This document shows positions 706 to 38,652 of a stretch of DNA of 38,652 nt, piece by piece. The DNA lies in IMG/VR virus record IMGVR_UViG_2695420676_000011. One strand, written 5' to 3'. The notes beneath the pieces were generated by a model. The model did not search any database. It was not told the origin of the DNA and was given only the letters and a program-made list of their open reading frames with translations. The stretch comes from a virus. Taxonomy: Duplodnaviria; Heunggongvirae; Uroviricota; Caudoviricetes. The position numbers were made by a program, and so were the translations under genes. Each line of letters begins with the position of its first letter. Position 1 is the stretch's first letter.

Positions 706-714
706 TCGTCTGAC

Positions 715-747
715 AAGCCCTCGCGTTGAGGGCTTTACTGATTTTTT
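715..747 (+). terminator. Rho-independent terminator downstream of grxA, between convergent grxA and ybjM
   Basis: Hairpin aagccctc-gcgtt-gagggctt followed by a T-run (tactgattttttc). Confidence 0.6.
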
Positions 748-1112: not shown

Positions 1113-1381
1113 TCGTTCCTCCTGACACTGCGTCTATCGAACACATTTTTCGCCAGTGTGGCGTTCAGTAAGATAAAGCCGCTTCGCATTCCATGCTAAT
1201 ATAGGCCAACGCAATTCATATAGCCGTTGATACCTAATGTGATTACACTAGTAAAATATATTGTTACTTTACTATCGTTTAGGTGCGCTGAATGAATCTG
1301 CGCCCTGAATTCTGGTAAAAAACATTATCGTAAATTACCATTTCTTTCAACAGCTTACTAGTAAACAAGAAGTTAGCCTCC

Positions 1382-3067
1382 GTGAATATAAACGTCGCCG
1401 AATTGTTAAATGGGAATTACATTCTGTTATTATTTGTGGTCCTCGCGCTTGGGCTATGTCTCGGAAAGTTACGACTTGGTTCGATCCAACTGGGTAATTC
1501 CATTGGCGTTTTAGTCGTATCGCTGTTATTAGGCCAACAACATTTCAGCATTAACACCGATGCGCTTAATCTTGGCTTTATGCTGTTTATTTTCTGCGTC
1601 GGGGTCGAAGCCGGACCGAACTTTTTTTCCATTTTTTTTCGCGATGGGAAAAATTACCTAATGTTAGCACTGGTGATGGTTGGCAGTGCGCTGGTGATCG
1701 CCTTAGGGTTAGGTAAGCTGTTTGGCTGGGATATTGGCCTGACGGCCGGTATGTTAGCAGGCTCTATGACGTCGACACCGGTGCTGGTCGGTGCTGGCGA
1801 TACACTGCGTCATTTCGGCATGGAAAGCAGGCAGCTCTCACTGGCACTGGATAATCTGAGCCTCGGGTATGCCTTAACCTATTTAATCGGTCTGGTGAGT
1901 TTGATTGTTGGTGCGCGTTACTTGCCGAAATTGCAGCATCAGGACTTACAGACCAGCGCCCAGCAAATCGCCCGCGAACGTGGCCTGGACACTGATGCCA
2001 ACCGTAAGGTTTATTTACCGGTGATCCGCGCCTATCGCGTCGGCCCGGAGCTGGTGGCCTGGACCGACGGCAAAAATCTGCGTGAACTGGGTATTTATCG
2101 ACAAACCGGCTGCTACATTGAACGTATTCGACGTAACGGGATTCTGGCAAATCCAGACGGTGATGCCGTGCTACAAATGGGCGATGAAATAGCGTTGGTA
2201 GGCTATCCCGACGCCCATGCCCGACTCGATCCCAGCTTCCGTAACGGTAAAGAAGTTTTCGATCGTGACCTTCTCGACATGCGTATCGTCACTGAAGAAG
2301 TGGTCGTTAAAAACCATAACGCTGTAGGTAAACGTCTCGCACAACTGAAGTTGACCGATCACGGTTGCTTCCTTAACCGCGTCATTCGTAGCCAGATTGA
2401 GATGCCGATAGATGACAACGTCGTGCTTAACAAAGGTGACGTTTTACAAGTCAGCGGCGATGCCCGCCGCGTAAAAACCATCGCCGATCGCATCGGCTTT
2501 ATCTCGATTCACAGCCAGGTCACTGACCTGCTGGCATTCTGCGCCTTCTTTGTTATTGGGCTGATGATCGGGATGATCACCTTCCAGTTCAGCACATTCA
2601 GTTTCGGCATGGGGAACGCTGCCGGGTTGTTATTCGCCGGAATTATGCTGGGCTTTATGCGTGCTAACCACCCGACCTTCGGTTACATTCCGCAAGGTGC
2701 ATTAAGCATGGTGAAAGAGTTCGGCTTGATGGTGTTTATGGCAGGCGTTGGTCTGAGCGCCGGTAGCGGTATTAATAACGGCCTGGGCGCGATTGGCGGT
2801 CAGATGTTGATTGCCGGATTAATTGTCAGTCTTGTGCCCGTGGTTATCTGTTTCTTGTTCGGTGCTTATGTATTGCGAATGAACCGCGCACTATTGTTCG
2901 GCGCAATGATGGGCGCACGCACCTGCGCGCCGGCAATGGAGATCATCAGTGATACAGCTCGCAGTAACATCCCTGCGCTGGGCTATGCGGGCACCTACGC
3001 AATCGCCAACGTCCTGCTGACGCTGGCAGGGACAATCATCGTCATGGTATGGCCAGGATTAGGATAA
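1382..3067 (+). CDS. ybjL: Putative AAE-family transporter YbjL (two TrkA-C/RCK_C domains)
   Basis: 561-aa ORF with GTG start and N- and C-terminal membrane domains around a soluble core; length and N-terminus match YbjL. Confidence 0.85.
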
Positions 3068-3302: not shown

Positions 3303-3521
3303 TCAAAGAGAGAGCGCCACCTGTCCTGATTTCATTGGATGCGGCTGAACCGGATTTGACTCTTTTGGCGTTGCAATCGAACGAACAAAAGTTTCATGGG
3401 TTACAAAAGTATGGCTGCAGTTAATATTCTGGCACTGGTTGTAACGCTCTTTGGTCAATGAAGATACCTGAAAACTGCTGCGAGTATGGGCGGCACTTCC
3501 ACACAGTGGGCAAATCATCAT
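3303..3521 (-). CDS. ogr: Late transcription activator Ogr/Delta family (C4 zinc finger)
   Basis: MMICPLCGSAAHTRSS...CQNINCSHTF zinc-finger pattern typical of P2 Ogr; start moved to an internal Met with a GGGAGAA RBS. Confidence 0.8.
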   Translation of the reverse strand: MMICPLCGSAAHTRSSFQVSSLTKERYNQCQNINCSHTFVTHETFVRSIATPKESNPVQPHPMKSGQVALSL

Positions 3522-3611
3522 TTTTCGAGTTCTCCCCATTTTTGCTAAATTCACAATAATGATACCGCATTATTCCATTTTGCAAACTTAAAAGTTCTCC
3601 ATTGCGAAGAA

Positions 3612-10591: not shown

Positions 10592-11164
10592 TCAGGGGGA
10601 TTCATTGATCTTATTTGCCGGAAATTTTCTATAAATGGTAGAAACGCCTACATCAAAAATCAGTGCAATACGCTGTATTGATTCTCCGGCCTCGAGTAAA
10701 CGCCCAATCTGTGCCCACTGTTCGGTGGTCAACTTAGGACGGCGTCCACCTACTCTGCCTTTGGCACGAGCTGCAGCCAGCCCTGCCCTGGTACGTTCAA
10801 CTATCAGTTCGCGTTCCATTTCAGCCAGGGCACCCATGACATGAAAAAAGAAACGGCCCATTGGGGTACTGGTATCAATACTGTCAGTCAGGCTTCTGAA
10901 ATTCACACCACGCTGGCGCAACTCTTCTATCAGCGTAACAAGATGCCGCATACTGCGCCCCAACCTGTCCAGCTTCCAGACAACCAGCGTGTCTCCTGCC
11001 GATAGTGTCCTGAGTAGTTTTTTCAGCCCCGGTCTGTCGGACTTAGTGCCACTGATTTTGTCCTCAAAAATCCGCTCACATCCCGCGCAGTTCAGTGCAT
11101 TACGTTGCAAATCGGTGTTCTGGTCATTTGTTGACACGCGTACATAGCCAATAAGCATGATCAT
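10592..11164 (-). CDS. Serine DNA invertase (Hin/Gin/Cin/Pin family)
   Basis: 190-aa product with the IGYVRVSTNDQ catalytic-serine N-terminus and a C-terminal HTH. Confidence 0.9.
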   Translation of the reverse strand: MIMLIGYVRVSTNDQNTDLQRNALNCAGCERIFEDKISGTKSDRPGLKKLLRTLSAGDTLVVWKLDRLGRSMRHLVTLIEELRQRGVNFRSLTDSIDTSTPMGRFFFHVMGALAEMERELIVERTRAGLAAARAKGRVGGRRPKLTTEQWAQIGRLLEAGESIQRIALIFDVGVSTIYRKFPANKINESP

Positions 11165-11185
11165 CCCCCTGAATAAAAACCGGAG

Positions 11186-11521
11186 ATGATGCCAGTTAGC
11201 TGGTACCTCTGCATTTTCTTAAACGTTGGTTTTGGAGAAGGTGCTAACTGGGTTATGTTACCTGGAGGAATGATAATTCAGCGTGTTTATCTTGGATTTC
11301 CTATTGGCACCAATGCAAGACACATAACTTTCCCCCGGTCGTTTACAACAACGAACTATTCCATCTCAATTAACTGGAATGATATCGGTACTGTAACAAC
11401 TGAAACACAATCACCAGCAAATGTGGCGGTTGTTCATCAAACAAAATCATTAACAGGGGCCAGCATCTGGCAGGCAGGTCCCGGGGGATTTAATGTGGAC
11501 ATTATAGCGGTGGGGTATTGA
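11186..11521 (+). CDS. Alternative (silent) tail-fibre C-terminal cassette
   Basis: Plus-strand ORF running out of the left crossover site (FGEGANW junction), lacking its own N-terminus. Confidence 0.55.
11216..11244. repeat. Invertase crossover site (hix/gix-like), left
   Basis: ttcttaaacgttggttttggagaaggtgc; the 17-nt core ggttttggagaaggtgc recurs inverted at 12955-12971 with one mismatch. Confidence 0.6.
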
Positions 11522-11522
11522 T

Positions 11523-11951
11523 ATGTACGTATGGAGCGCTAAATCAAATGGCTTTTTCCCCATATCGGAGAAAGAAAAATTTGAGGCATCAGGTCTGTGG
11601 CCTGATGATGGTGTAATAGTCAGTGAGGAAGAACATAAAAAGTTATTTATGGATATTCCACCAGGAAAACAGATTGGAACACTGAATGGAAAACCAGCAC
11701 TGATAGATATTCCTCAGCCGACCAAAAAGGAATTAATAGCTATTGCTGAAGTTAAAAAATCCCAATTACGGGAAAAAGCTGACAGTGAAATATCCTGGCG
11801 TCAGGATGCTGTTGATGCTGATATCGCAACTGATGAAGAAACTTCAACTCTCACCGAATGGAAGAAATACCGTGTGCTGCTGATGCGTGTTGATACTTCA
11901 ACAGCACCCGATATTGAATGGCCTACGCCTCCGGCAGTTCAGGCCAGATGA
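11523..11951 (+). CDS. Alternative tail fibre assembly chaperone (Tfa/gpG family), inverted cassette
   Basis: 142-aa ORF immediately after the silent fibre cassette; C-terminus ([14 protein letters not shown]) parallels that of the minus-strand Tfa. Confidence 0.6.
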
Positions 11952-12516
11952 CATCCGGCGCGGTGCTGGTATCTGTTGCCGTCACCGCGTCAATGTAATC
12001 CAGCACGGTGTTAAGTCGGGTTGTTTCTGCCTGAGTCAGTTTCCGTCCGGCCTGTAATTTCAGCTGAATCAGACTAATGGAAGCCATTACTGCATCAATC
12101 AGTGACTGGCGCTGTGCTTCTGCTGCTTCTACTGCGGCGTTATGCTGTGCCTCAGTATCTGTCACCCATTTCTCACCATCCCATTTATCATATGGCGTTA
12201 ACGGTGAAAGCGTGACATAACCGTTTTTGATGGCACCGATATAATCCACTGTAACAGCTGCGCCATTTTCTGTTGAGTAAACAGTCTCATTGCGATGGTC
12301 TTCTTCATGGCTCCATCCCTTACCCGTAAATACTGCCACTTTCCCCGGAATGTTTTCGCCCGGGTCAATACCAGTGGAACAGGCGGGCATACTTACGCCA
12401 GTATTAATATATTCATCAGACCAGCCCGTATACTCAGATGTTTCAGCATCATAATAAAAACAACGCATATCGCCCGGCACTGTGGCCAGCCCATTTTCAT
12501 CAAAAACAGGTTTCAT
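11923..12516 (-). CDS. G: Tail fibre assembly chaperone (gpG/Tfa family), expressed cassette
   Basis: 197-aa ORF directly downstream of the tail-fibre gene, ending [15 protein letters not shown]. Confidence 0.75.
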
Positions 12517-19757: not shown

Positions 19758-20408
19758 TCAGCGGCTGTCATTGCGCAGTCTGCGCTCCAGCTGCTGTTTG
19801 TCTTTTTTCACGCCACAGCGGGGATCGAGCTGTAACGCATGGTTGAGATGATTAAGGGCAGACGCCGGATTGCCTTCACTCAGGACCGCGCCAATCGCTT
19901 TATGCAGACGCGCCCGTGACTGATCCGGCATATCCAGACCGTCTGTCAGCTCCAGCGTCTGCAGCAACAGATCGGCATCAAAGCCGGTGGCAGCAAGCAT
20001 TGCGCTCTGCGCCGCGTCTGCCATTTCCTCTGCCAGCACGGTCTGCACGTTGCGGTTACCCAGCGGCATCACCCAGCCATGACGCAGGGCATGACGCCCG
20101 ATCTCCAGCGCCCCGGCATAATCTCCGGCATCAATGCGCCACAGCATCACGTACATCAGCACGTCATCCTGTTGAGCGCCTCCGGCAGCCAGAACGCCCT
20201 CCGCCCAGGCGGCATATTTCGGCAGCAGCTCCACCTTTATTTCCGCTTTTTTCACCGTGGACTGAACGCCCTTGAGACGGCGGCGGTCTTCCGCCAGTTG
20301 CAGCAGCATCAGGTCATAGCCCGACGCGTGGCGAACACTGCCGCCCTCACGGGCGGCCTGTTCAGCCTGAACGCGCAGGCGATGCTGCCGTGCGGGACTC
20401 AGGCTCAT
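19758..20408 (-). CDS. M: Terminase endonuclease/small subunit gpM
   Basis: 216-aa ORF immediately downstream of the capsid gene, as in P2. Confidence 0.75.
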   Translation of the reverse strand: MSLSPARQHRLRVQAEQAAREGGSVRHASGYDLMLLQLAEDRRRLKGVQSTVKKAEIKVELLPKYAAWAEGVLAAGGAQQDDVLMYVMLWRIDAGDYAGALEIGRHALRHGWVMPLGNRNVQTVLAEEMADAAQSAMLAATGFDADLLLQTLELTDGLDMPDQSRARLHKAIGAVLSEGNPASALNHLNHALQLDPRCGVKKDKQQLERRLRNDSR

Positions 20409-22377: not shown

Positions 22378-22395
22378 TGTACCGACAACCACACA
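22378..22395. promoter_or_regulatory. Candidate Ogr-dependent late promoter element (TGT-N12-ACA) in the divergent O/P region
   Basis: TGTaccgacaaccacACA dyad in the 142-bp gap between the O and P start codons. Confidence 0.5.
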
Positions 22396-22441
22396 AACCG
22401 CAGGCGGGGAAAGCCGTCATTCAAGGCTGTAGGTTTGTGCC

Positions 22442-24208
22442 ATGAACACCACACTGACACCCGCAGATCTCGATCCCCGTCGGCAGGCCATGCTGCTGTA
22501 CTTTCAGGGATACCGCGTAGCCCGCATTGCTGAAATGCTGGGCGAGAAAGTTGCAACCGTTCACAGCTGGAAAAAACGCGACAAGTGGGGTGACTATGGG
22601 CCGCTGGATCAGATGCAGCTCACCACCGCCGCACGCTACTGCCAGCTCATTATGAAGGAGCACAAAGAAGGGAAAGATTTCAAAGAAATTGACCTGCTGG
22701 CGCGCCAGTCGGAGCGCCACGCGCGCATCGGCAAGTTTAACAATGGCGGTAACGAAGCCGACTTAAACCCTAACGTCGCCAACCGCAACAAAGGCCCGCG
22801 CCGTCAGCCGGAAAAGAACGTTTTCACCGATGAACAAATTGAGAAGCTGGAAGAAATCTTCCACTCCTCCATGTTCAACTACCAGCGCCACTGGTGGGAA
22901 GCCGGAAAAACCAACCGCATCCGCAACCTGCTGAAGTCACGCCAGATCGGCGCGACCTTTTACTTTGCCCGTGAAGCCCTGATTGACGCCCTGCTGACCG
23001 GACGTAACCAGATTTTCCTTTCCGCCAGTAAGGCACAGGCCCACGTCTTTAAGCAGTACATCATCGACTTCGCCAAAGAAGTGGAGGTGGAGCTGAAAGG
23101 CGATCCGATGGTGCTTCCTAACGGGGCCACGCTTTACTTCCTCGGCACCAATGCCCGCACAGCCCAGAGTTATCACGGTAACCTGTATCTGGATGAATAT
23201 TTCTGGATACCGAAATTCCAGGAGCTGCGCAAAGTGGCTTCCGGTATGGCTATTCACAAAAAATGGCGACAAACCTATTTTTCCACGCCATCCAGCCTGA
23301 CCCACAGTGCTTATCCGTTCTGGTCCGGTGCGCTGTTCAACCGTGGACGCAACAAAGCCGACAAGGTGGACATCGACCTGTCCCACAGCAATCTGGCCCC
23401 CGGCCTGCTGTGCGCAGACGGGCAGTACCGCCAGATAGTCACTGTGGAAGATGCGGTGCGCGGCGGCTGCAACTTGTTCGACCTCGACCAGTTACGCATG
23501 GAATACAGCCCGGATGAATACCAGAACCTGCTGATGTGTGAGTTCGTGGACGATCTCGCGTCCGTGTTCCCGCTCAGCGAGCTGCAGGGGTGCATGGTGG
23601 ACAGCTGGGAAGTCTGGACCGACTTTCATGCACTGGCGCTGCGCCCGTTTGGCTGGCGCGAAGTGTGGATCGGTTATGACCCGGCAAAAGGTACGCAAAA
23701 CGGCGACAGCGCCGGGTGCGTGGTGGTGGCACCGCCAGCCGTGCCGGGCGGTAAGTTCCGCATTCTTGAGCGTCACCAGTGGCGCGGAATGGACTTCCGC
23801 GCCCAGGCTGACGCCATCAAAAAACTGACCGAGCAGTACAACGTGACCTATATCGGCATTGACTCGACAGGCGTCGGTCACGGGGTTTATGAGAACGTGA
23901 AAGCGTTCTTTCCTGCCGTCCGGGAGTTTGTCTACAACCCCAACGTTAAAAACGCTCTGGTACTCAAGGCCTACGACATTATCAGCCACCGCCGTCTGGA
24001 GTTTGACGCCGGACACACCGACATAGCGCAGTCATTTATGGCAATCCGTCGCGCCACCACCGCCAGTGGCAACCGCCCGACCTATGAAGCCAGCCGCAGC
24101 GAAGAAGCCAGCCACGCCGATCTGGCCTGGGCAACAATGCACGCACTGTTTAACGAACCACTGCAAGGCGAGTCCGCCAATACCAGTAATATTGTGGAGA
24201 TTTTTTGA
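22442..24208 (+). CDS. P: Terminase large (ATPase) subunit gpP
   Basis: 588-aa ORF divergent from O and followed by the portal gene, as in P2. Confidence 0.9.
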   Translation: MNTTLTPADLDPRRQAMLLYFQGYRVARIAEMLGEKVATVHSWKKRDKWGDYGPLDQMQLTTAARYCQLIMKEHKEGKDFKEIDLLARQSERHARIGKFNNGGNEADLNPNVANRNKGPRRQPEKNVFTDEQIEKLEEIFHSSMFNYQRHWWEAGKTNRIRNLLKSRQIGATFYFAREALIDALLTGRNQIFLSASKAQAHVFKQYIIDFAKEVEVELKGDPMVLPNGATLYFLGTNARTAQSYHGNLYLDEYFWIPKFQELRKVASGMAIHKKWRQTYFSTPSSLTHSAYPFWSGALFNRGRNKADKVDIDLSHSNLAPGLLCADGQYRQIVTVEDAVRGGCNLFDLDQLRMEYSPDEYQNLLMCEFVDDLASVFPLSELQGCMVDSWEVWTDFHALALRPFGWREVWIGYDPAKGTQNGDSAGCVVVAPPAVPGGKFRILERHQWRGMDFRAQADAIKKLTEQYNVTYIGIDSTGVGHGVYENVKAFFPAVREFVYNPNVKNALVLKAYDIISHRRLEFDAGHTDIAQSFMAIRRATTASGNRPTYEASRSEEASHADLAWATMHALFNEPLQGESANTSNIVEIF

Positions 24209-25245
24209 TGGGAAAGCGTAAGAAAAACCGCGCAGCGGCGATGAATCAGATCCAGCATAAAAGCCAGACTTCAGCCGAAGCATTCAGCTTCGGCGATCCC
24301 GTTCCTGTTCTGGACCGCCGCGAATTACTGGACTATGTGGAATGCGTACAGATGGACCGCTGGTATGAGCCACCAGTGAGTTTCGACGGACTGGCGCGAA
24401 CCTTCCGCGCCGCCGTGCATCATAGCTCACCGATTGCGGTGAAATGCAACATTCTGACCAGCACCTACATCCCTCACCCGCTGCTCAGCCAGCAGGCTTT
24501 TTCACGTTTTGTGCAGGACTATCTGGTATTTGGTAACGCCTACCTGGAGAAACGCACGAACCGGTTCGGTGAAATTATCGCCCTTGAGCCTGCGCTGGCA
24601 AAATACACCCGACGCGGGTTAGACCTGGATACCTACTGGTTTGTGCAATACGGTATGACAACCCAGCCGTATCAGTTCACGAAAGGCAGCATCTTTCATC
24701 TGATGGAACCCGATATCAACCAGGAGATCTACGGCCTGCCCGGCTATCTTTCTGCCATTCCGTCAGCCCTGCTCAACGAGTCCGCCACGCTGTTCCGACG
24801 CAAATATTATATTAATGGCAGCCATGCAGGATTCATAATGTACATGACCGATGCCGCTCAGAACCAGGAGGATGTGAACAACCTCCGCAACGCGATGAAA
24901 AGCGCCAAAGGTCCGGGCAACTTCCGCAACCTGTTTATGTACTCGCCTAACGGCAAAAAGGACGGGCTTCAGATCATCCCGCTGTCAGAAGTGGCGGCAA
25001 AGGATGAGTTTCTGAACATCAAGAACGTAAGCCGGGACGACATGATGGCGGCGCATCGTGTGCCGCCGCAAATGATGGGGATTATGCCGAATAATGTTGG
25101 GGGGTTTGGGGATGTGGAGAAGGCAAGCCGTGTATTCGTCCGAAATGAGCTAATGCCACTACAAAAGCGATTACAGGAGATGAATGATTGGCTTGGCAAG
25201 GAGGCGATACAGTTTAATACCTACTCGCTAGATATAGTCCCATAA
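24205..25245 (+). CDS. Q: Portal protein gpQ
   Basis: 346-aa ORF with 4-bp overlap with P. Confidence 0.9.
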   Translation: MMGKRKKNRAAAMNQIQHKSQTSAEAFSFGDPVPVLDRRELLDYVECVQMDRWYEPPVSFDGLARTFRAAVHHSSPIAVKCNILTSTYIPHPLLSQQAFSRFVQDYLVFGNAYLEKRTNRFGEIIALEPALAKYTRRGLDLDTYWFVQYGMTTQPYQFTKGSIFHLMEPDINQEIYGLPGYLSAIPSALLNESATLFRRKYYINGSHAGFIMYMTDAAQNQEDVNNLRNAMKSAKGPGNFRNLFMYSPNGKKDGLQIIPLSEVAAKDEFLNIKNVSRDDMMAAHRVPPQMMGIMPNNVGGFGDVEKASRVFVRNELMPLQKRLQEMNDWLGKEAIQFNTYSLDIVP

Positions 25246-25249
25246 TAAG

Positions 25250-25273
25250 AAAAGCCACCGTTTGGTGGCTTTT
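25250..25273. terminator. Bidirectional rho-independent terminator between Q and the HIRAN-domain gene
   Basis: aaaagccacc-gttt-ggtggctttt: GC stem flanked by A-run and T-run, between convergent genes. Confidence 0.6.
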
Positions 25274-25279
25274 CTTCAT

Positions 25280-26020
25280 TTACTCAATAGGTTCAAACTC
25301 ATCCTGAGGAATCAGCGTCGATTGACAGGCTTGGCTTAGTACTCCTGATAATTTACATAATAACCGATAGTTATGAGGAGCATCATCGCTAATCTTTTCG
25401 ACCGTTAAAGTGATTGATTTTGGATCATCCAATAACATCTTCTTGATATCATTACTTAAATACCTAGGGCAGTAACCAACGATTTCAGCTGGTTTATCTG
25501 CACGAACGACAACAGCATCCCCATCGTATTCATTTTGAAGATCCAAGCAAAGACGCAAAATTTGCCCCGGTTTCAATTCAGATACACGAGCATTAGCTAA
25601 GCTATTTAAGTAACCAAGTCCATGTAAGAAGAAAAAATGCTCAAAGTTACCATCAGAATCAACATCAATTTTTTTGAAAATCTGCAGCTGATCAGTGCTT
25701 CGTAAGCCTCCCGAGCGAGCAAGAATATCGATAGGATTTACCTTATCTTCTTCAAATCCAAGCCATTTAATGAAACTCGGATACTCTGGACGTCTCGGTG
25801 ATAAAAGGCGATTTTTAAAAAGAGGAAACAATTCTTCCGAAACATAAGTTTCACGAACATCACTCATGCCGCTAAACTTTGTAAATTTAGTAGATTTGAG
25901 AGCACCTTTGGTATACCTGAAAACATACCCCGATTTGCGCTCTTGCAAGTTACCAACAACATGCCAGTCTCTGGTATCTGGTGCCTGCCATGCGACGTAA
26001 ACGGAGTTTGTATTAGTCAT
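25280..26020 (-). CDS. HIRAN-domain protein, putative partner of the HipA-like kinase
   Basis: 246-aa ORF overlapping the upstream kinase gene by 4 bp; C-terminal ~100 aa resemble a HIRAN domain (ILRLCLDLQNEYDGDAVVVRAD...EIVGYCPRYLSNDIKKML); AT-rich. Confidence 0.55.
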   Translation of the reverse strand: MTNTNSVYVAWQAPDTRDWHVVGNLQERKSGYVFRYTKGALKSTKFTKFSGMSDVRETYVSEELFPLFKNRLLSPRRPEYPSFIKWLGFEEDKVNPIDILARSGGLRSTDQLQIFKKIDVDSDGNFEHFFFLHGLGYLNSLANARVSELKPGQILRLCLDLQNEYDGDAVVVRADKPAEIVGYCPRYLSNDIKKMLLDDPKSITLTVEKISDDAPHNYRLLCKLSGVLSQACQSTLIPQDEFEPIE

Positions 26021-26931
26021 TCTAGTAACCTTCTGCGATTTTCCATTACCATTAACGTTGCAAATCTACGTGCGCTGTCGGATATACACGATGAAGGCAC
26101 TTGGTTAAACACATCTGTAATGGAATCTTCTGTTAAAACGCTCAACTTACCTAACCAATGGTCGCGAGCGGCAACTCTCCCTTCAACTGCATGTTGAAAT
26201 GCTTCAACGGTCAGCAAGGGCTTTTTATCAGTTTTTGCTTTGAATAGCTCAGAGCGAGCTTTTCTTACAAAACATGGGATTTGTCGATTTTTATCTTTAG
26301 TATTAAGCCGTTCGTTACGCTCATCATCTAACATCTCCCTTCCTAAACTAGCGGCATGATCGTATGTTGGACACAAAAACTGCTCACCAGTTTCATTGTT
26401 AAGCATGATCGCCCAATTTTCATGATGGCGATCTTGATTACTCACAAGTGCATCGAGCATCAAATATCCACAAAATACATCTGCTGCATTTAGCCCGGTT
26501 AGATCATATACACTCGGAGGAGGCTTGATAGATTCCCTATCTAAACAACCCAATACCCTTGTGACAGTGTGTTCTCTGACCCTTACCGGCTTTTCCCCGG
26601 CTTGTAAAGGCCCAGGATAATCGAATGTCGAACTGTGAAGCACTTCATTTCCCATTACCATCCGGAAACCAGATGGAATGATATTCTGAGTCACCACACC
26701 GAATCGACCATTGTATCGCGCCAAATCATAGCTAGCATGTGGAATGTTAAGCAAATGACATAACTCAGCAGCACACTTTTCAGACCAATGCTCGCCAGTA
26801 CCTGGCCTAGAGTACTTAAACAACTGCAAATTTACAGTGTCATCGGAGAAATAGAACCAAAACTTCTCTTTGGTTCCTAACTGTTCAAGATCGTTAGCTA
26901 CGGGGCTAAGCTCTACCAATTGGTATGGCAT
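26017..26931 (-). CDS. HipA-like serine/threonine kinase (kinase core only)
   Basis: 304-aa product with a HipA-type catalytic loop VSNQDRHHENWAI and downstream CPTYDHAASLG; AT-rich; first gene of a two-gene operon. Confidence 0.6.
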   Translation of the reverse strand: MPYQLVELSPVANDLEQLGTKEKFWFYFSDDTVNLQLFKYSRPGTGEHWSEKCAAELCHLLNIPHASYDLARYNGRFGVVTQNIIPSGFRMVMGNEVLHSSTFDYPGPLQAGEKPVRVREHTVTRVLGCLDRESIKPPPSVYDLTGLNAADVFCGYLMLDALVSNQDRHHENWAIMLNNETGEQFLCPTYDHAASLGREMLDDERNERLNTKDKNRQIPCFVRKARSELFKAKTDKKPLLTVEAFQHAVEGRVAARDHWLGKLSVLTEDSITDVFNQVPSSCISDSARRFATLMVMENRRRLLE

Positions 26932-27083
26932 CTGACATCCCTGTTTAGCGGATTATGAATAAGTTAGGTTCCATTTTATCCAAACATTGTCAAATACTCT
27001 AAGATTTATTAGATGATAGAGCGATACTGTATGCATGTCCAGCAATCAAATCAATATATAACTCTTATATGACTTAGCGCGCG

Positions 27084-27102
27084 CTCGTATCCCCGCCACG
27101 CC
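27084..27102 (-). other. Candidate cos (cohesive-end) site of the prophage
   Basis: Minus strand reads GGCGTGGCGGGGATACGAG; the first 13 nt match the P2/186 cohesive end as I recall it; isolated GC-rich island in an AT-rich intergenic region in the expected Q-to-A interval. Confidence 0.3.
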
Positions 27103-27526
27103 TGCCCGCTTTATGTAGTGGTTTTCATGCACCTGCATGACATAAGCAAAAGCACGCCAGTTCTGGCTGACTTCAGCAAAAACGATCCTCAAACGATCAT
27201 GCGATCTCATGCGTCATAGTCATGCGCTGCCAAGGGAAGCGTAAATCCGTATCTGAATGACTGCTGAAAAGCGAATCATACGGGTTTACAAAGATGAAAG
27301 TTCGCTGTGAGCGAGAAGCGAACCTTGCAACTTTGTTGGCACAGTTTTAACACCAATTTTTTGAGGATAGCTAGAAAACTTGTGGCATAAAGGATCAGTT
27401 TCCCGATCGAACTTTTTATCAAGAAGGGCTCATAGCAATCGCCAGAAGAAGTGATGTTAAAGTATTGAGCTCGGCGTTAAGATTAAATAAATTACAGACT
27501 AATCCAATGTTTTGTGGAAGGATAAG

Positions 27527-28570
27527 ATGGCAGTCAAGCGCGCATACTACGGTAACGATAGTGACCGAGACTACTTAGAGCGGATATTTCAGTCAGCTAA
27601 CATTAACTTTCTCATCGGATCAGGTGCATCCCTCCCAGCGATTAAAGTACTGGGGACAATCGAAACGGATCTTCAGCAGCTTATTAATGATGAACAGGAA
27701 GATGAATACTTAAGGATGGCAGCTGACTTTTTGTCAGATGTTTGGCTACCTCATGAATGCATGTTGAAGCGCGGCTACGGCACCCCCTTCGCACCTCAGG
27801 TGATCACCGATTTGGAATGTACCCGTGCAAATTATGATGCATTTATGTCTTCACTGGAAAAGATACTGACCCGCCGCCGAACTGGCCTACTTCCGAGGCG
27901 TATTAACGTTTTTACAACTAATTATGATTTATTCATCGAAGAAGCTGCCACACGTAATAACAATATTCTTTTTAATGATGGATTCAATAGAAGAGCAAGT
28001 ATTTTGGGAGATGCGGAATTTGATGCGGGTAGCTTTAATCATTCTGTAAGTGCAACCGGAAATCTGTATAATTATAAAGTTGAGCTTCCTACTGTTAACC
28101 TTATAAAACTTCATGGTTCGCTCTCTTGGCAGCATTCTAAAGGGAAAATCATTTATCGTATTGCAGATATTAAGCCGCTTGACTTTCCCACCCTAGCCGA
28201 AATGAAAGGATGGGTACTTGCTCATGCACTTATTCTTCCACGTAAGGAGAAGTTTAAAGAGACTCTACTACAGAACGTTTATTATGATTTACTGAGAACC
28301 TATTCCAACGAGCTTGATAAAGAAGCAACTTTACTAATTGTCTTTGGGTTCTCGTTTGCTGATGAGCACATTGAAACGATAACTAAAAAAGCCCTGCGCA
28401 ACGCCACCCTGAAGCTACTGATCTTTGCTTTCGATGAGGCCAGTGTTAACGGCTTTATGGAGAAATTTCGGGATTACTCAAACGTAGAGATTATTTATCG
28501 GCCGGGAAGAAATGTTGATTTTCCGGTAATGAATAACATTATCACGTGCTATCTGGGAGGCTCGAGATGA
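27527..28570 (+). CDS. SIR2-family NADase of a SIR2-HerA anti-phage system
   Basis: SIR2-like motifs NFLIGSGAS, TTNYD and KLHGS; ATG at 27527 with RBS (ORF track start 27512 is TTG); stop overlaps the HerA start (ATGA). Confidence 0.8.
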   Translation: MAVKRAYYGNDSDRDYLERIFQSANINFLIGSGASLPAIKVLGTIETDLQQLINDEQEDEYLRMAADFLSDVWLPHECMLKRGYGTPFAPQVITDLECTRANYDAFMSSLEKILTRRRTGLLPRRINVFTTNYDLFIEEAATRNNNILFNDGFNRRASILGDAEFDAGSFNHSVSATGNLYNYKVELPTVNLIKLHGSLSWQHSKGKIIYRIADIKPLDFPTLAEMKGWVLAHALILPRKEKFKETLLQNVYYDLLRTYSNELDKEATLLIVFGFSFADEHIETITKKALRNATLKLLIFAFDEASVNGFMEKFRDYSNVEIIYRPGRNVDFPVMNNIITCYLGGSR

Positions 28571-30426
28571 GCAGGCATTTTACTGAAGAGGAAGCGGTGC
28601 TCCGTATAGGCGAAGTCTGTGAGGTTTCTGGACGCGCTGTGACAATTTTGGTCGATAAAAACAAAAATCTCAGTGACTTGTTTTATCAGGGAAAAGTTCT
28701 AAGAAATGTATCAGTGGGTAGCTTCATTGAGATCAAAAAAGGTTTCATGAGCCTGATCGGCAAGGTTGAAGCGGAACGAATCATTGAGGAAAAACATCTC
28801 GCTGGGAGCGGCAGTGATGCCTGGCGATATCGGCGATACCTGACCTCTACTCTTACGGGTTACATTGATCGTACTGGTTGCTTCATTGGTGGTTCGCGTG
28901 AACTACCTCTCATCGGCAATGAAGTCTTCGTGGTAACTGAAGAGATGATACAAACGGTTCATCAGATAGCTAATGCAGACGAAACTGTAATGAGGTTTAC
29001 TCGTACAGATCTTGAAGATATTGAAATTGCACTACCAATCAATGGTCTTATTAATTCCCACATTGCCATTTTCGGTAATACAGGCAGCGGAAAGTCAAAT
29101 ACCCTAGCCGCGCTATACAAAGCAGGTATTGCCCAAGTTAAACATATTCTCGGCAACCACTTTAGTGAAAGATGCAAATTTATTCTATTCGACTTTAATG
29201 GAGAATATACTGCCCCACGCTGTATTACTGACGAGAAGACGGTTTATAATCTCAACACGCACCATGCAAATGGTGACAAACTTCCTCTACCCAGAGAGGT
29301 TCTACTTGAGCATGATATGCTCTCAGTTCTAACCGATGCAACAGACAAAACACAGAAACCTTTCCTGAAGAGAGTTCTTGAGTTTCGCAAGAAAGTGATG
29401 ACTGCTGATAATCCTCTTGAGTTTATGCGCAATATCCTGAAGAAAAAAGTCAGACAAAATCTCTTTAGTAGCGACAAACCCAAATGCGATACTATAAATC
29501 AGTTTCTTAGCCCAATTTTCAAAGATGACCCAGAACTTATATCTGATCTTGAGTATCATTCAACTGCATATAAATGGAAATTGAGGGGTGGTAGTATTTT
29601 CAATACAGAAGCTGATACTGAGCGCTCCTATCTATTCAGTCTTGCAAGCAATTTTTTATTTAAAACTGATATGATTGAAGAACTGTTGGACTTTATGTAC
29701 TTACAGTTAATACAGGAATATTTATCTAACAAGTCTAACCCTGAACATATTTCACCAGTTATAAATAGAATGAGTGCTAACCGTAAAGATATAGCCAAAA
29801 TATTTGATACTTCCGGACAGTCTGACTTTTGGGGTGAACATAATTTCACGGTTGTGAATCTAAATATGGTTAATATAACCATGAAAAAAACGCTTCCTCT
29901 TTTGATAGCCAAGTGGGCTTACAATATGAAGAAAATGTCTACAGAGAAATCTACACTGCACATCATTATAGATGAAGCCCACAATATTTTGTCTAATACT
30001 TCTTTTCGGGAAACGGAAAGTTGGAGAGATTATCGTCTGGAAACTTTTGAGGAAATCATAAAGGAGGGGAGAAAATTTGGAGTTTTTATCACAATTTCCA
30101 GTCAACGCCCTAATGATATATCGTCGACAATCATATCCCAAGCACACAATTATTTTATTCATCGCCTTATTAATCAGAATGATCTGTACGCAATTGAAAA
30201 ATCAGTATCATATATAGATCGACTGACTGAAGAGTCGATTCCAACGCTATCTACAGGAACCTGTATTTTTAGTGGTATCGTCTGCCCCATGCCGCTCAAA
30301 TTAAGGGTAGCTGAACTTCCAATTGAAGAAAAACCTAAGAGTAATACTATTTCCTTCAACGATTTAATACCTGAGAGGCTGGGAGAGGATGACCAGAGCG
30401 ACTACGTAATAACCAGCCCTCACTAA
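28567..30426 (+). CDS. HerA-like (FtsK/HerA superfamily) ATPase of a SIR2-HerA anti-phage system
   Basis: Walker A IAIFGNTGSGKSNT and Walker B LHIIIDEAHN; GGGAGG RBS; translationally coupled to the SIR2 gene. Confidence 0.85.
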   Translation: MSRHFTEEEAVLRIGEVCEVSGRAVTILVDKNKNLSDLFYQGKVLRNVSVGSFIEIKKGFMSLIGKVEAERIIEEKHLAGSGSDAWRYRRYLTSTLTGYIDRTGCFIGGSRELPLIGNEVFVVTEEMIQTVHQIANADETVMRFTRTDLEDIEIALPINGLINSHIAIFGNTGSGKSNTLAALYKAGIAQVKHILGNHFSERCKFILFDFNGEYTAPRCITDEKTVYNLNTHHANGDKLPLPREVLLEHDMLSVLTDATDKTQKPFLKRVLEFRKKVMTADNPLEFMRNILKKKVRQNLFSSDKPKCDTINQFLSPIFKDDPELISDLEYHSTAYKWKLRGGSIFNTEADTERSYLFSLASNFLFKTDMIEELLDFMYLQLIQEYLSNKSNPEHISPVINRMSANRKDIAKIFDTSGQSDFWGEHNFTVVNLNMVNITMKKTLPLLIAKWAYNMKKMSTEKSTLHIIIDEAHNILSNTSFRETESWRDYRLETFEEIIKEGRKFGVFITISSQRPNDISSTIISQAHNYFIHRLINQNDLYAIEKSVSYIDRLTEESIPTLSTGTCIFSGIVCPMPLKLRVAELPIEEKPKSNTISFNDLIPERLGEDDQSDYVITSPH

Positions 30427-30570
30427 TTAACAAAGTGCTGAAGCGGTAACGACCGCTTCTAGCACAAAGCGGACGATCACTTATCAAAATGCCCGCCCAC
30501 CTTACGCCTCGTTTCACTCGTTGCCCAAACTAGCCCCCATCAGAATGAATCCTCCTGGAGGCAACGTTTC

Positions 30571-30804
30571 TTAATGCAGCCAGCTGTCGTCTTCCCACAC
30601 TTTCTGCATAATTTTCATCACTTGTTTTCTTTCTTCATCCAGTTGCAGTCCGGTCAGTTCCACACCGTTAGAGCTACCTTTGCGGATACGAATTACCGTT
30701 TTGGGATACAGGGGGCGCAGATTGCGGTAAAGCTCGGATTCAAGGGCGTCCAGGGTAGACTGGCTAATCTTCTGCTCTTTATCGATCATTATTTCAATGC
30801 GCAT
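30571..30804 (-). CDS. DinI-family protein
   Basis: 77-aa product MRIEIMIDK...VWEDDSWLH resembling DinI; GAGGTGA RBS; second gene of a LexA-box-preceded operon. Confidence 0.7.
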   Translation of the reverse strand: MRIEIMIDKEQKISQSTLDALESELYRNLRPLYPKTVIRIRKGSSNGVELTGLQLDEERKQVMKIMQKVWEDDSWLH

Positions 30805-30814
30805 AAAAGTCACC

Positions 30815-31003
30815 TCAACTGATGACATCCATTGAGCGGTTGTATTCGTGGGTTCTGATTTTTGCCATGAGTTCATCAGTCAATTCAGAAACCCACTGCA
30901 GAGCCAGCCCCTTCTCTTCATCACTACACTCACTAGCCGCTACAAGCTTAAGAAAAAAATCAATGCGCTGGAGCTTCAAAGACTCCAAAAAATAGTCCTG
31001 CAT
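30815..31003 (-). CDS. Small SOS-regulated protein of unknown function (position of the 186 tum operon)
   Basis: 62-aa ORF directly downstream of a consensus LexA box and upstream of the DinI-like gene. Confidence 0.45.
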   Translation of the reverse strand: MQDYFLESLKLQRIDFFLKLVAASECSDEEKGLALQWVSELTDELMAKIRTHEYNRSMDVIS

Positions 31004-31044
31004 CTTTCCTCCTATGACACCAAAGCGATACTGTATACATAACC

Positions 31045-31062
31045 ACTGTTTATATTTACAGT
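31045..31062. promoter_or_regulatory. LexA operator (SOS box)
   Basis: aCTGTttatatttACAGt: CTGT-N8-ACAG with an all-A/T spacer, about 40-60 bp upstream of the 62-aa ORF. Confidence 0.7.
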
Positions 31063-31155
31063 ATATAATAATCTTACTGATGTAAAACGTTTTTTTACGT
31101 TCATCAGCCAGAAATGCCTGGTATTATTAAGAGCACGAATTGTTAACCCGCGTAA

Positions 31156-33570
31156 TTAATACAGGTTCCGCCACTTATCATCTTCCTGCAAACGCTGGTT
31201 CCGATAGAAGATACGCAGGCCTGCTCCTGACGGAATACTGCCGCCGCGAAGGAGTAAATCGACCTCTTTCTCGCTGCCATCAAATCCCCTGGACTTCAGT
31301 TCATACACGAGCTGCTGTCGCTGATGATCTGTAATTCGCTGTTTGTAGTCTTTACGCCGTTTCGGTTTCACCAGGCGTAACCTTGCTGCCAGTTCCCGGC
31401 GCTCTTTTTTGCTCATACTGTGCAGGTAATCGTGCAACTCCTTGTCATCCATACGGGTGATATCAGTTCTGGTATCTCCATCAGCTGATTTGTCTTTCCC
31501 TTGTTGGTACAAATTTTCAGCAAGGGGACAGTTATTGCCACGAGTCCAAGGGGCGCAAGCGCCCTGGTCGGCTGCCGCCTCCTGAACGTCAACGGCCTTA
31601 CGAACCATTTTCCACTTCACTGCATGAGTGCAGATCTTGCCCTCTGCAATGGGTGACCAGATGCCATAAATACGAATGCCGTGATCGCCATAGGCTGTCG
31701 GCTCTTCGTTGATTTCATAAGCGGTTCTGATCAAGTGATATTTGCGGGGAACCAACACGCCGCCCTGCTTCATAATGTAGGTGGCAAAACAGCCAGCATC
31801 AGCAGCAGCCAGAATGGCATCAAGGCGCGGGTTATCCAGTACCGGAGCACCTGCTTTTTTGTCACCCTGTTGCCTTGCCGCCTGACCAGCCAGCAATCGC
31901 AGTTCACGGTAAGCCTGACGCCCCGGAATGCCAAAGAAGCGGAATTGCTGAACACGATGCAGAGACGCCCAGACATTAACGTATTCAGCGTTATCACGCA
32001 GAGATTTACCCGTTTCCTTGCTGATCTCGCCAGCCAGACCACGCCCGTCAATGTTCTTACTGATATATTTCGCGATGTAGCTTGTCGGCGTTCCTTTGCG
32101 CGGGTTAATCAACTCAGACTTAAAGCGCGGCCCAGTGTTATTGCCCAGCTCCTCGCGGTCTTCACGGATGGCAAACTTACGCAGTAATGCAGTGATGGCG
32201 CGGCGGTCTTTTTTGCGCATAAAACACAACAGGTGCCAGTGAACTGTACCGTCATGATGCGGCTCAGCCACCCGCACGCCATACCAGCGCAATCCGGCTT
32301 TGTGCATCGCCTTACGAAATGCAGCAAACATGCCGACCAGATAGTCGCTGCTTTGTCTTACCGTCGAGTTTGTCCAGGTCGGGTTGGGTCTGCCGTTATT
32401 GAGCGTGGAATGGAAACGCGACGGACAGGTGATAGTGTAGAAAACGGCGCAGTCACTGCGCATTTCCGCGATAAGCTCCAGACCTTTAACACAGGCCATC
32501 ATCTCATTGCGGCGATGCGCCGGGTTGCTGCTGCTGGCGTTTACCACATCTTCCATATCCAGCGTGTCGCCGTCTTCGTTCACCAGTTCATGAGAACGGA
32601 AAAACTCCAGCGACTTACGGCGCTGCTCACGTTTATGCATCACGGCTTCATAGCTGACATAGGGGGATGCTTTTTTGCTGACCAGGCAGACAGCACGCAA
32701 CTGCTCTTCCCGCCATTCACAACGCATCTTCCATAATTTCCGATACCACCAGTCGGCACACAACATACGCGCCAACGAACCCGGAATGAGTTCATAGGGC
32801 ACGGGTTTACGGCGGTTTCTTTTCCGACGGAGTTGCTCAAACGCAGGTGGGATGACATCCAGACGCAGGGTTTCCGCTGCCACCTTTTCCCATGTCTTGC
32901 GGATTTCTTCTGGCTTAACGTCATCGGTGGCATACAAATCACCACAAGCTGCATCAAGGCACATACTCATATGCGCAGCTACCAGGGTGGACAGGCGTTT
33001 CACCTGATCCTGACTCATTTCAGGCAGGATCAGCAGGCCGTCCAGCCCTTCATGGCTTGCCATAAAGCGAAAAGATGCAGATAGCTGACTGTCGCGTACA
33101 TGCTCCAGTCGTTCCAGACATGGCTTAATCGTCTCACGTAAATAGCGGGAATAAGCCTTTGGCTTGCCCAGGCTGCTGAAGTATTCAATACGTTGCATCA
33201 GCGGCTTGCTGATATGGGAAGGCTGGGCGTTGACGTCCGCCAGAATGACCATGTCTGAATTAAAACGCTGCTGCTCATGCGCCAGCTTTGCCCGGCTAAT
33301 GAGCTTATCCTGCTCCATTTCGCGCTGGACAGGATCACGTGATTCATTAAAGAAATAACGCTCCCAGACCTGATCACTCAGTGCCTCGCGGCGCAACTGT
33401 TCCTGCTCGTTATCGGCAGCGTACAGAGTGATCAGGTTTGAAAGCGTAGAAACCGGCGCAACTTCCGCCGGGTCCAGATAAGGGTTAATGGCCTTTTTCG
33501 GGCTGTTCCATGAGAATGCTGCAGCAGCCTCGTTAAAGCCGCAGCAGTTGTTCATATCGGCATGACTCAT
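31156..33570 (-). CDS. A: Replication initiation protein gpA (rolling-circle nickase)
   Basis: 804-aa ORF at the end of the early operon, in the P2/186 gene A position. Confidence 0.85.
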
Positions 33571-34424
33571 GCACGTACTCCGTACACGGCAGAACTATCC
33601 ACGCCACGCGAATAATCAAATCCCATCCAGCAGCGCGGCCCGGAAACAGCAATGATTTCTGTTGCTGATTTACCCTCGCCAGCTGCCACACCGATGCTGC
33701 GTTTTACCTTGATATAGTGGTGAGTAAAATTGCGATACAGCGAACGGATCAGGGATGTGTCACTGTTAGAAACAATGACTGGATGTCCTTCTGATGACCG
33801 ATGTTCAAGAACGGATGCCAGGTGATACTGGTCATCTTCAGTGAAACCATCAGTGTGATAGCCGGAAAACGTACCGTCATACGGCGGATCGCAATACACC
33901 ACATCTCCCGCCTTCAACATCGCCAGCGTTTCATCAAAGCTGGCGCAGATAAACGTTGCTCGCTGGGCTTTTTCTGCAAATGTGCGAAGTTCTTTTTCAG
34001 GGAAATACGGATTTTTATAATTACCGTAGGGGATGTTGAAATGCCCGCTCTTGTTATAGCGACATAAACCACGGTAACCGTGACGATTAAGATACAGGAA
34101 ATATACCGCTTTCATGAAATCAGTAATTTCAGTTGAGCAGTTAAACTCCTGCCTTATGTTGTAATAAGCCACCTCCCTGTTTGCGATCTCAAATAAAACT
34201 CTGGCGCGAGATATAAACGATTCACAATCAGCGGAAACCTTTTTATAGAGGTTGATTAAATCAGGATTAATATCCGCAACCAGATAGCTGGGATAATCCG
34301 TTTCCATCATCACAGCACAGGAACCCGCGAAAGGTTCAACCAGTCGCGGGCCAGCAGGAAGGTATTTTTTCAGTTCTGGCATAATGGCGGTTTTATTTCC
34401 CGCCCATTTCAGGATGGTGCTCAT
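33567..34424 (-). CDS. DNA N6-adenine methyltransferase (Dam-like)
   Basis: DPPY catalytic motif ([10 protein letters not shown]) and N-terminal AdoMet-binding region ([10 protein letters not shown]); start set at [11 protein letters not shown] with GGAGGTG RBS, overlapping the upstream stop. Confidence 0.8.
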
Positions 34425-34648
34425 ACAGCACCTCCGTTGTAATGTTTGCCTTTCAGTTCTGCGATTTCCTGACAGGTAATGCAAAGCTGCACTCCCGGAA
34501 TGGCGCGGCGTCGTGCTGGCGGAATTGGCGCTTCACATTCAATGCAAAGTACGCGTGACACGCCCGGTGATTTGGCACGGGCTGCACGGATATGGCGCTG
34601 GCGTTCTTCTTCAACGCGCTGCTGTACGAGATCCATTGCATCAGCCAT
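34421..34648 (-). CDS. TraR/DksA-family C4 zinc-finger protein
   Basis: 75-aa product with CIECEAPIP...CITCQ four-cysteine motif. Confidence 0.7.
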   Translation of the reverse strand: MADAMDLVQQRVEEERQRHIRAARAKSPGVSRVLCIECEAPIPPARRRAIPGVQLCITCQEIAELKGKHYNGGAV

Positions 34649-37411: not shown

Positions 37412-37599
37412 CTTTTGCTTTTATATCTGCGTCTAAAATAAAAATGAGCCGCAGGTTAACCGCAAAAGTTACATGCTCACATAGCAAAAAGAATAGCCAA
37501 CTTAATTATGGCTTCAGTGAGATGTATGGTCGTAGGATTTCATACATTGACACTGGTTATACATACAGTGAAAATGCTCTCTACTGGAGGGCATTTTTT

Positions 37600-38652
37600 A
37601 TGGCAGTACGAAAACTCACCACTGGGAAATGGCTTTGCGAATGTTACCCCGCCGGACGAAGTGGGCGTCGTGTGCGTAAACAATTCGTCACCAAAGGCGA
37701 AGCACTGGCTTTTGAGCGCCACACGATGGAAGAAACCGAAGCAAAGCCCTGGCTGGGTGAATCAGTGGATCGTCGAACACTGAAAGACGTGGTTGAGCTA
37801 TGGTTCAAACTACATGGTAAATCTCTGACAGCTGGGCAGCATGTCTATGACAAATTGCTGTTGATGGTTGACGCTCTGGGCAATCCTCTTGCAACCGATC
37901 TCACCTCTAAAATGTTTGCCCACTATCGAGATAAACGCCTGACAGGCGAGATCTACTTCAGCGAGAAATGGAAGAAAGGAGCAAGCCCGGTCACCATTAA
38001 CCTGGAGCAAAGCTATCTAAGTAGTGTTTTTAGCGAACTATCCCGTCTGGGCGAATGGTCGTATCCGAACCCACTGGAGAACATGCGAAAATTCACCATC
38101 GCAGAAAAAGAGATGGCATGGCTTACCCATGAGCAGATTGTTGAATTGCTGGCTGATTGCAAACGTCAGGACCCAATTCTGGCACTGGTAGTTAAGATAT
38201 GCTTAAGCACAGGCGCACGCTGGCGTGAAGCCGTAAATCTTACCCGCTCACAGGTGACCAAATACCGAATTACCTTTGTCAGAACGAAGGGGAAGAAAAA
38301 CAGAAGCATCCCTATCAGTAAAGAGCTTTACGAAGAGATCATGGCGCTTGATGGGTTCAATTTCTTCACAGACTGCTATTTTCAATTTTTATCCGTGATG
38401 GAAAAAACGTCTATCGTACTCCCTCGCGGTCAACTCACACACGTTCTGCGCCATACGTTTGCGGCGCACTTCATGATGTCGGGTGGAAACATTCTGGCCT
38501 TACAAAAAATTCTCGGACACCACGATATAAAAATGACTATGCGTTACGCACATCTGGCACCGGATCATCTGGAAACGGCGCTCCGTTTCAATCCTCTGGC
38601 AACGCTGCCAAGTGGCGACAAAGTGGCGGCAGCGGTTGGCATTACCCCGTAA
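37600..38652 (+). CDS. int: Tyrosine integrase
   Basis: Start at MAVRKLTTGKW with GGAGGG RBS; C-terminal catalytic region with LRHTFA...HHDIKMTMRYAHL; stop codon is the last three bases of the window. Confidence 0.85.
   Translation: MAVRKLTTGKWLCECYPAGRSGRRVRKQFVTKGEALAFERHTMEETEAKPWLGESVDRRTLKDVVELWFKLHGKSLTAGQHVYDKLLLMVDALGNPLATDLTSKMFAHYRDKRLTGEIYFSEKWKKGASPVTINLEQSYLSSVFSELSRLGEWSYPNPLENMRKFTIAEKEMAWLTHEQIVELLADCKRQDPILALVVKICLSTGARWREAVNLTRSQVTKYRITFVRTKGKKNRSIPISKELYEEIMALDGFNFFTDCYFQFLSVMEKTSIVLPRGQLTHVLRHTFAAHFMMSGGNILALQKILGHHDIKMTMRYAHLAPDHLETALRFNPLATLPSGDKVAAAVGITP

Follow-up and report, generated by a model that had tools for sequence, protein, structure and literature searches.

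Two gene cassettes of an Escherichia coli prophage, a kinase/HIRAN pair and SIR2-HerA, are separated by a GC-rich 19-mer that resembles the cohesive ends of phages P2 and 186. Is this motif the cos site of the prophage, and do the two cassettes lie at opposite ends of its virion DNA? The initial annotation had raised this possibility and had left it uncertain in view of a second cos-like match in the same DNA. Here, the question was followed up in the whole stretch of 38,652 nucleotides (IMG/VR record IMGVR_UViG_2695420676_000011, referred to as the window) and in related loci. Our comparisons argue strongly that 27077-27228 is the P2-family cos site of a Fels-2/SEN8-type prophage, a reading to which we assign a probability of about 0.93.

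Gene order around the 19-mer

The left end of the window (1-3067) carries E. coli host genes (DUF1418, glutaredoxin, ybjM, and a ybjL-type permease), followed by a P2-family prophage that is inverted relative to the P2 map. The genes and cassettes that bear on the location of cos are:

3303-3554: ogr
19758-20408 (-): gpM, terminase small subunit (Phage_term_smal, 2e-40)
22442-24208 (+): gpP, terminase large subunit (Terminase_6N, Terminase_6C, and Terminase_5 domains)
24205-25245 (+): gpQ, portal gene, conserved left border of the cos-proximal hotspot
25280-26931 (-): left-slot cargo at the predicted left virion end, HIRAN protein (25280-26020) and HipA-like kinase (26017-26931); PADLOC PDC-M03
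27512-30426 (+): right-slot cargo at the predicted right virion end, SIR2 (27512-28570) and HerA (28546-30426); PADLOC
30571-30876 (-): DinI/Tum-like gene, within the conserved right border of the hotspot
31156-33570 (-): replication gene A (gpA), within the conserved right border of the hotspot
33567-34484 (-): Dam methylase gene, adjoining gpA

Tail and lysis genes lie between ogr and gpM, the capsid gene N and the scaffold gene O lie between gpM and gpP, and the CI repressor and the integrase come last. As in other P2-family members, the cognate terminase (gpM plus gpP) is encoded on the same element as cos; gpP, whose N terminus is an HTH-like Terminase_5 domain, would be the subunit that cuts. 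The 19-mer (27084-27102) lies between Q and the DinI and A genes, and its minus strand reads toward Q, which is the location and orientation of cos in the P2 family. The genes for morphogenesis, lysis, terminase, replication, and immunity are all intact ORFs. The presence of a DinI/Tum-like gene suggests that the SOS response may induce the prophage. Apparently, this is a complete Fels-2/SEN8-type P2-family (Peduoviridae) prophage in the E. coli chromosome, completeness being read within the window, outside which the prophage end beyond the integrase falls. The segment 25200-30900 is present as a whole in three complete E. coli genomes with 99.8% identity, and the PGAP annotation of one of them lists a full P2-like gene set.

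The integrase (37444-38652, plus strand; 402 amino acids) ends exactly at the end of the window. A prophage of E. coli strain 2c3, whose hotspot is 99.8% identical, has a 349-amino-acid integrase instead (locus L021, 32115-33164), followed by a DUF2971 gene, and therefore, a common cos region can go with different immunity/integration modules. Elsewhere in the window, a serine recombinase (Resolvase plus HTH_7; 10592-11164, minus strand) adjoins oppositely oriented tail-fiber-assembly ORFs (11186-12516), among them Caudo_TAP (11523-11951, plus strand); the locus (10592-12516) looks like a Gin/Cin-type invertible tail-fiber host-range switch.

The 19-mer and its homology to known cos sites

On the minus strand, positions 27084 to 27102 read GGCGTGGCGGGGATACGAG, as the initial annotation had reported, and the plus strand reads CTCGTATCCCCGCCACGCC. 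The first 13 nt had been described as matching the 19-nt cohesive end of P2/186 and the last 6 as differing from it. Comparison with the P2 and 186 records bears out the former, the P2-family start GGCG(A/T)GGCGGGGA being matched at 13/13 positions over the core, but only four of the last six positions differ from 186; identity over the whole 19-mer is 15/19 to 186 and 14/19 to P2. The 13-mer GGCGWGGCGGGGA occurs a single time in the 38.6-kb window, even at 1 mismatch (expected, 0.06), and the full 19-mer is likewise unique even at 3 mismatches, with matches in 0 of 100 shuffles. The surrounding intergenic region (26932-27511) does measure 580 bp, as had been stated, but it is AT rich solely outside the conserved block: the GC content is 32% to the left of the block, 53% within its 152 bp (27077-27228), and 40% to the right.

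To compare whole junctions, the right and left ends of P2, 186, P4, and SEN8 were joined and compared with the minus strand of the window. The P2 and 186 records annotate the cohesive ends at 1-19, with the portal gene ending ~170 bp away. The junction reads ...TCATGCAGGTGCATGAAAACCACTACATAAAGCGGGCA/GGCGTGGCGGGGATACGAG/CGCGCGC... in the window, ...TCATGCAACTGCATTAAAACCGACCCATAAAGTGGGCA/GGCGTGGCGGGGAAAGCAT/TGCGCGC... in 186, and ...AAGGTGCATTAAAACCGCCCCGTGAAGCGGGCG/GGCGAGGCGGGGAAAGCAC/TGCGCGC... in P2. The alignment with the P2, 186, and P4 junctions takes in AAAGCGGGCA upstream and GCGCGC downstream as well as the TGCATGAAAACC element and the distal GCAT repeats, and all core elements of the family are present (TGCAT(T/G)AAAACC, N10, and AA(A/G)(C/T)GGGC(A/G) upstream and (C/T)GCGCGC downstream). 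Over a 57-bp core, identity to the window is 44/57 for P2, 43/57 for P4, and 44/57 for 186, on a scale on which P2 and 186 share 48/57. P2 and P4 have been described as sharing a ~55-bp cos region (Ziermann & Calendar 1990, as cited in PMC9594776 and PMC3931495), to which, on homology, window 27077-27133 corresponds. The proposal that the motif may be cos gains from this homology, which extends well beyond 13 nt, and from the canonical position between Q and A; in the alignment with P2, 186, and related cos regions, the conserved cos of the family falls at 27084-27102. The features of the conserved block are:

27077-27228 (-): whole conserved putative cos block, 152 bp, between two variable cargo slots (blastn break points and conservation profile)
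27077-27133 (-): 57-bp cos core, GGTGCATGAAAACC, N10, AAAGCGGGCA, the 19-mer, and CGCGCGC (homology to the ~55-bp cos of P2/P4)
27084-27102 (-): predicted 19-nt cohesive-end sequence GGCGTGGCGGGGATACGAG, equivalent of cosN (base-for-base alignment with the annotated P2 and 186 cohesive ends)
27125-27140 (no strand): palindrome TCATGCA-CC-TGCATGA, two inverted GCATGA motifs ~22-38 nt from the cut, candidate terminase recognition element
27156-27171 (-): terminator-like site, short GC hairpin followed by a T-run, at the position of the 186 terminator t95b
27180-27198 (-): two GATCGTTT direct repeats, 11 bp apart (repeat search)
27197-27226 (-): three CGCATGA direct repeats with spacings of 10 and 13 at the distal block edge, candidate gpM/gpP binding repeats, cosB-like

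CGCGCGC is on the left-arm side of the 19-mer, and AAAGCGGGCA and AAAACC are on its right-arm side. GCATGA occurs 5 times in the block, compared to 0.11 expected from its density in the window. The palindrome is conserved as TGCA..TGCAT in 186, P4, and P2, and the three distal repeats (27197-27226), ~95-125 nt from the cut, align with GCAT-containing repeats at matching positions in the same three genomes. A third GATC at 27203-27206 forms, with the two GATCGTTT repeats, a Dam-site cluster specific to this cos type. The 186 record has t95b at 30436-30463; the stem of the hairpin is weaker in the window than in relatives, which read GCCCGCCAG-AA-CTGGCGGGC TTTT. A small inverted repeat (CCGCCC...GGGCGG) across the right-arm flank of P2 and P4 is not conserved in the alignment with the window, and we assign it no role.

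Among 34 distinct IMG/VR sequences that contain this 19-mer, the well-conserved stretch extends from -126 to +26, counted from the first G (window 27228 to 27077), and the profile is near background outside; as the search pattern itself set positions -5 to +26, the independent evidence of conservation is that from -126 to -6. Identity is 0.93 to 1.00 in the 19-mer and its immediate flanks and 0.68 to 0.82 in the hairpin stretch.

An identical 19-mer with both flanks is found in Fels-2, SopEPhi, vB_EcoM-813R9, vB_YpM_MLG42, Cartapus, and SEN8; MLG42 and SEN8, at the least, represent isolated phages. Cartapus and vB_YpM_MLG42 are Escherichia/Yersinia Elveevirus phages, and Fels-2, SopEPhi, and SEN8 are Salmonella phages. 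In these five, the flanks are AAAGCGGGCA and CGCGCGC as in the window, identity over the 152-bp block is 89 to 93%, and cos likewise lies between Q and DinI-A, flanked by a cargo slot on either side. Apart from the slot cargo, only a few base changes within the hairpin stretch set the window apart from this Fels-2/SEN8 type. The SEN8 record begins at the first G of the 19-mer, which it annotates as "putative cos site," and the Cartapus record annotates the 19-mer as a putative cos homologous to that of P2. The identical 19-mer has been published as the SEN8 cos (PMC5427200), and similar "...ACGAG" ends are described for Smp131 (PMC3931495) and SEN4/5. A literature search with the literal sequence found no end-sequencing of an "...ACGAG" cos, the assignments in SEN8, SEN4/5, and Smp131 being made by analogy with P2.

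186 and P2, whose 19-nt 5' cohesive ends are GGCGTGGCGGGGAAAGCAT and GGCGAGGCGGGGAAAGCAC, agree with the window in the first 13 nt (with one A/T difference in P2), in the flanks, AAAACC element, and GCAT repeats, in the gene neighborhood, and in the terminase gene families; they differ at overhang positions 14, 16, 17, and 19, their gpP is ~63% identical to that of the window, and their cos lacks the GATC/GATCGTTT repeat cluster. The cos of the P4 satellite resembles that of the window not only in its core but also in having a defense hotspot directly beside it. In three 186-like records, PV287706.1 (Midge), MK972710.1 (SI22), and NC_049459.1 (SW9), the sequence does not stop exactly at the aligned 19-mer but a few bases inside it or just before it, which suggests that ends are assigned inconsistently among deposited 186-like genomes.

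Cargo slots, cos variants, and satellites

The initial annotation had the motif separate the two cargo modules and, if it is cos, had placed kinase/HIRAN at the extreme left and SIR2-HerA at the extreme right of the virion DNA. We agree with both: the block is the sole conserved DNA between Q and DinI-A, and the homology-based orientation puts kinase/HIRAN at the left virion end in the P2 convention and SIR2-HerA at the right. The kinase/HIRAN pair matches the PADLOC models PDC-M03A (2e-122) and PDC-M03B (3e-93), and the right-hand pair matches SIR2 (6e-211) and HerA (7e-267). To our knowledge, PDC-M03 is a candidate defense system only. Both cassettes are transcribed away from cos, and a sigma-70-like promoter site (27041-27013, minus strand) precedes the kinase gene; old/tin of P2 is arranged like SIR2-HerA, with a promoter near cosR.

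Where homology to relatives breaks off is sharply defined. The blastn break points are at 27077/27078 and 27225-27228 in comparisons with Fels-2, SopEPhi, 813R9, 500465-1, MLG42, EC812A1, and SCU-106, and in the first five of these, only 27077 to ~27228 is shared between Q and DinI. E. coli EC812A1 shares 27078-31200 at 99.95% and has a different gene to the left of cos; in E. coli SCU-106, the shared stretch is 25000-27228, with DinI following at once, the right slot being empty; and E. coli MB06022 shares 25000-27326, followed by a restriction endonuclease and an ASCH protein. These breaks at the edges of the block in E. coli relatives indicate two slots that are exchanged independently. Several E. 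coli prophages have the PDC-M03 pair together with a right slot that is empty or differently filled.

The occupancy of the slots varies with the type of cos. Among the IMG/VR matches listed, the distance from cos to Q exceeds 500 bp in 20 of 24 loci with the cos type of the window and in 4 of 30 P2-type loci; the slot is usually filled in the former (20/24) and usually empty, with ~185 bp, in the latter (26/30). Cargo on the A side is found in about half of the loci of the window type among the same matches. In one locus with the same cos (L075, 1730-2960), an IS3-family element (transposase ORFs, 1840-2960) lies ~90 bp beyond the 19-mer on the left-arm side, and therefore, the left slot also accepts insertion sequences.

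This layout is that of a known hotspot. Rousset et al. (2022) described the cos-proximal gpA-gpQ region of P2-like phages as a defense hotspot with 1,650 gene arrangements, whose loci often hold more than one system, and speculated that cos ends promote exchange (PMC9122126); a 2026 NAR study confirmed the GpA-GpQ hotspot across thousands of P2-like prophages. In the window, too, variable accessory/defense genes that differ among relatives lie between gpA and gpQ, beside cos.

A degenerate cos scan of IMG/VR gave at least 120 matches, and the 120 loci listed, which are not phylogenetically independent, were compared. ATACGAG, the variant of the window, is the commonest overhang end (36), followed by the P2-type AAAGCAC (34), ATAGCAT (21), and the 186-type AAAGCAT (14). 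Among these matches, identity to the gpP of the window is 84 to 100% within the ATACGAG group and 61 to 70% in the other variants; for the N-terminal 100 amino acids, the values are 89 to 100% and 48 to 57%. The co-segregation of cos variant and gpP clade is explained by shared ancestry and also fits a co-evolved specificity.

P4-like satellites were retrieved through Psu (80 among the matches listed, IMG/VR loci L142-L221), and in none of the 74 with a readable cos was ATACGAG found; all are of the A[A/G]AGCA[C/T] type. AAAGCAC (59) and AGAGCAT (9) prevail, besides minor variants; in addition to these nine, all six loci with a divergent Psu have AGAGCAT. Nine P4-like loci in the 120-locus sample agree in being without ATACGAG. 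It may be that P4-clade satellites do not use Fels-2-type phages as helpers; alternatively, the overhang difference may be tolerated by the terminase. Two unclassified IMG/VR loci had been considered as satellites with ATACGAG: L075 was rejected, being a fragment of P2-like type in which cos has DinI upstream and the IS3 element just downstream, and L105 gave no evidence of a satellite and is too short to classify.

The Dam sites also differ between cos types in the matches listed. Of the 35 IMG/VR loci that carry the 19-mer of the window, 21 contain GATCGTTT-N3-GATCGTT, which is absent from all P2-type and 186-type loci, and the right-arm part has at least 2 GATC in 34 of 35 loci of the window type, whereas 30 of 34 P2-type loci have none. 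A dam gene beside gpA occurs in 14 loci of the window type and in no P2- or 186-type locus, a weak comparison, as most P2-type loci do not cover the region. It is imaginable that the ATACGAG cos is not a neutral variant and represents a distinct packaging-specificity class, possibly gated by Dam. The divergence of gpP (~63% identity to the P2 type; ~52% in the N-terminal HTH), the 0/74 satellites, and the GATC cluster together with dam led us to consider this, and we regard it as rather unlikely. Such a cos could be an escape from, or a barrier to, cos piracy of the P4 type, and a methylation-gated binding or cutting by the terminase, as at the pac site of P1, is possible.

Packaging model and alternative explanations

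In our model, which draws on the biology of P2 and 186, the terminase (gpM plus gpP) would recognize the 27077-27228 block during lytic growth, likely contacting, on the right-arm side, both the GCATGA repeats and AAAACC-N10-AAAGCGGGCA. By analogy, we infer that recognition resides in these repeats and AAAACC...AAAGCGGGCA, and nicking in the 19-mer. The two nicks, spaced by 19 nt, would separate 27103 from 27102 on the minus strand and 27083 from 27084 on the plus strand; the positions are predicted from the 186 record, which notes that the top strand is cut at the 5' end and the bottom strand at the 3' end. The packaged genome would be linear with complementary 19-nt 5' overhangs, which would anneal after injection to re-form the circle, and the two cassettes, transcribed away from cos, would sit at the two termini of the virion DNA. 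Phage lambda has a cos site (cosQ-cosN-cosB) with a nicking site, adjacent terminase-binding repeats, and 5' cohesive ends. The functional logic at the cos of the window would be analogous, with no sequence homology; the overhang is 19 nt instead of the 12 nt of lambda, and the conserved recognition DNA is, unlike that of lambda, on the mature right-end side of the nicks.

The second 13-nt cos-like match, which had been taken to make the assignment uncertain, does exist, although at 22402-22414 (plus strand) and not at 22397-22415. It reads AGGCGGGGAAAGC, 13 contiguous nucleotides identical to positions 5-17 of the P2 cos, and with only 0.05 such matches expected by chance, it might be asked whether the real cos lies here, between the scaffold (O) and terminase (P) genes. 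To this we give almost no credence. The motif matches the phage's own 19-mer at 10/19 positions only, and it is accompanied neither by the flanks AAAGCGGGCA and GCGCGC nor by GCAT repeats. It is located within the 142-bp divergent O/P late-promoter region, directly preceded by an Ogr-type activator site (TGT-N12-ACA, 22378-22395), and in P2, the O/P region is annotated with a binding site for the activator of pO and pP and contains no such motif. Among relatives with the same cos, the motif drifts (AGGCGGGGAAAGC in 9, AGCCGGGGAAAGC in 3, AGCCGGGGAAAGG in 2, and AGTCAGGGAAAGG in 1), and no P2-family record puts cos in the O/P region. Flanks, the 10/19 match, promoter context, and drift together exclude this site and remove the uncertainty it had caused; 22402-22414 is probably promoter-region sequence.

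The function of the 19-mer at 27084-27102 could still be doubted in two ways. It might be a decayed relic, homologous to cos and no longer cut, in a defective prophage; several departures from the clade consensus in the hairpin part and the location of one prophage end outside the window would agree with this. However, isolated phages have exactly the same 19-mer, flanks, and GCATGA repeats, all of which are intact in the window; the phage genes named above are present as intact ORFs; and the block, at 99.9% identity, adjoins left cargos that vary among more than 10 E. coli genomes, pointing to recent mobility. Decay is very improbable. Alternatively, the block might be kept mainly as a terminator or insulator of the DinI/Tum operon, as a platform for divergent cargo promoters, or as a recombination anchor for cassette exchange. 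The terminator-like hairpin does match t95b of 186 in position, the homology break points are exactly at the block edges, and recombination at cos ends is what Rousset et al. speculate about (PMC9122126). Such roles would add to packaging and not replace it: it is the 19-mer and its flanks that are most conserved, with the hairpin stretch well below them, and P2 retains the core without having the hairpin. That they are the main reason for the conservation of the block seems to us extremely unlikely, and a packaging site remains by far the best explanation.

The cos site and its layout are already known, given the hotspot described by Rousset et al. in 2022 and in the 2026 NAR study and the annotation of the 19-mer as the SEN8 cos; the assignment is a correct annotation, not a discovery, and current understanding is unchanged by it. 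What it provides is the placement of cos, which defines the ends of the virion genome, and with it a gpA-gpQ hotspot that, in this prophage, consists of two slots split by a 152-bp packaging signal and swapped independently. This is useful for the annotation of prophage cargo and for delimiting defense cassettes, such as the candidate PDC-M03 beside SIR2-HerA.
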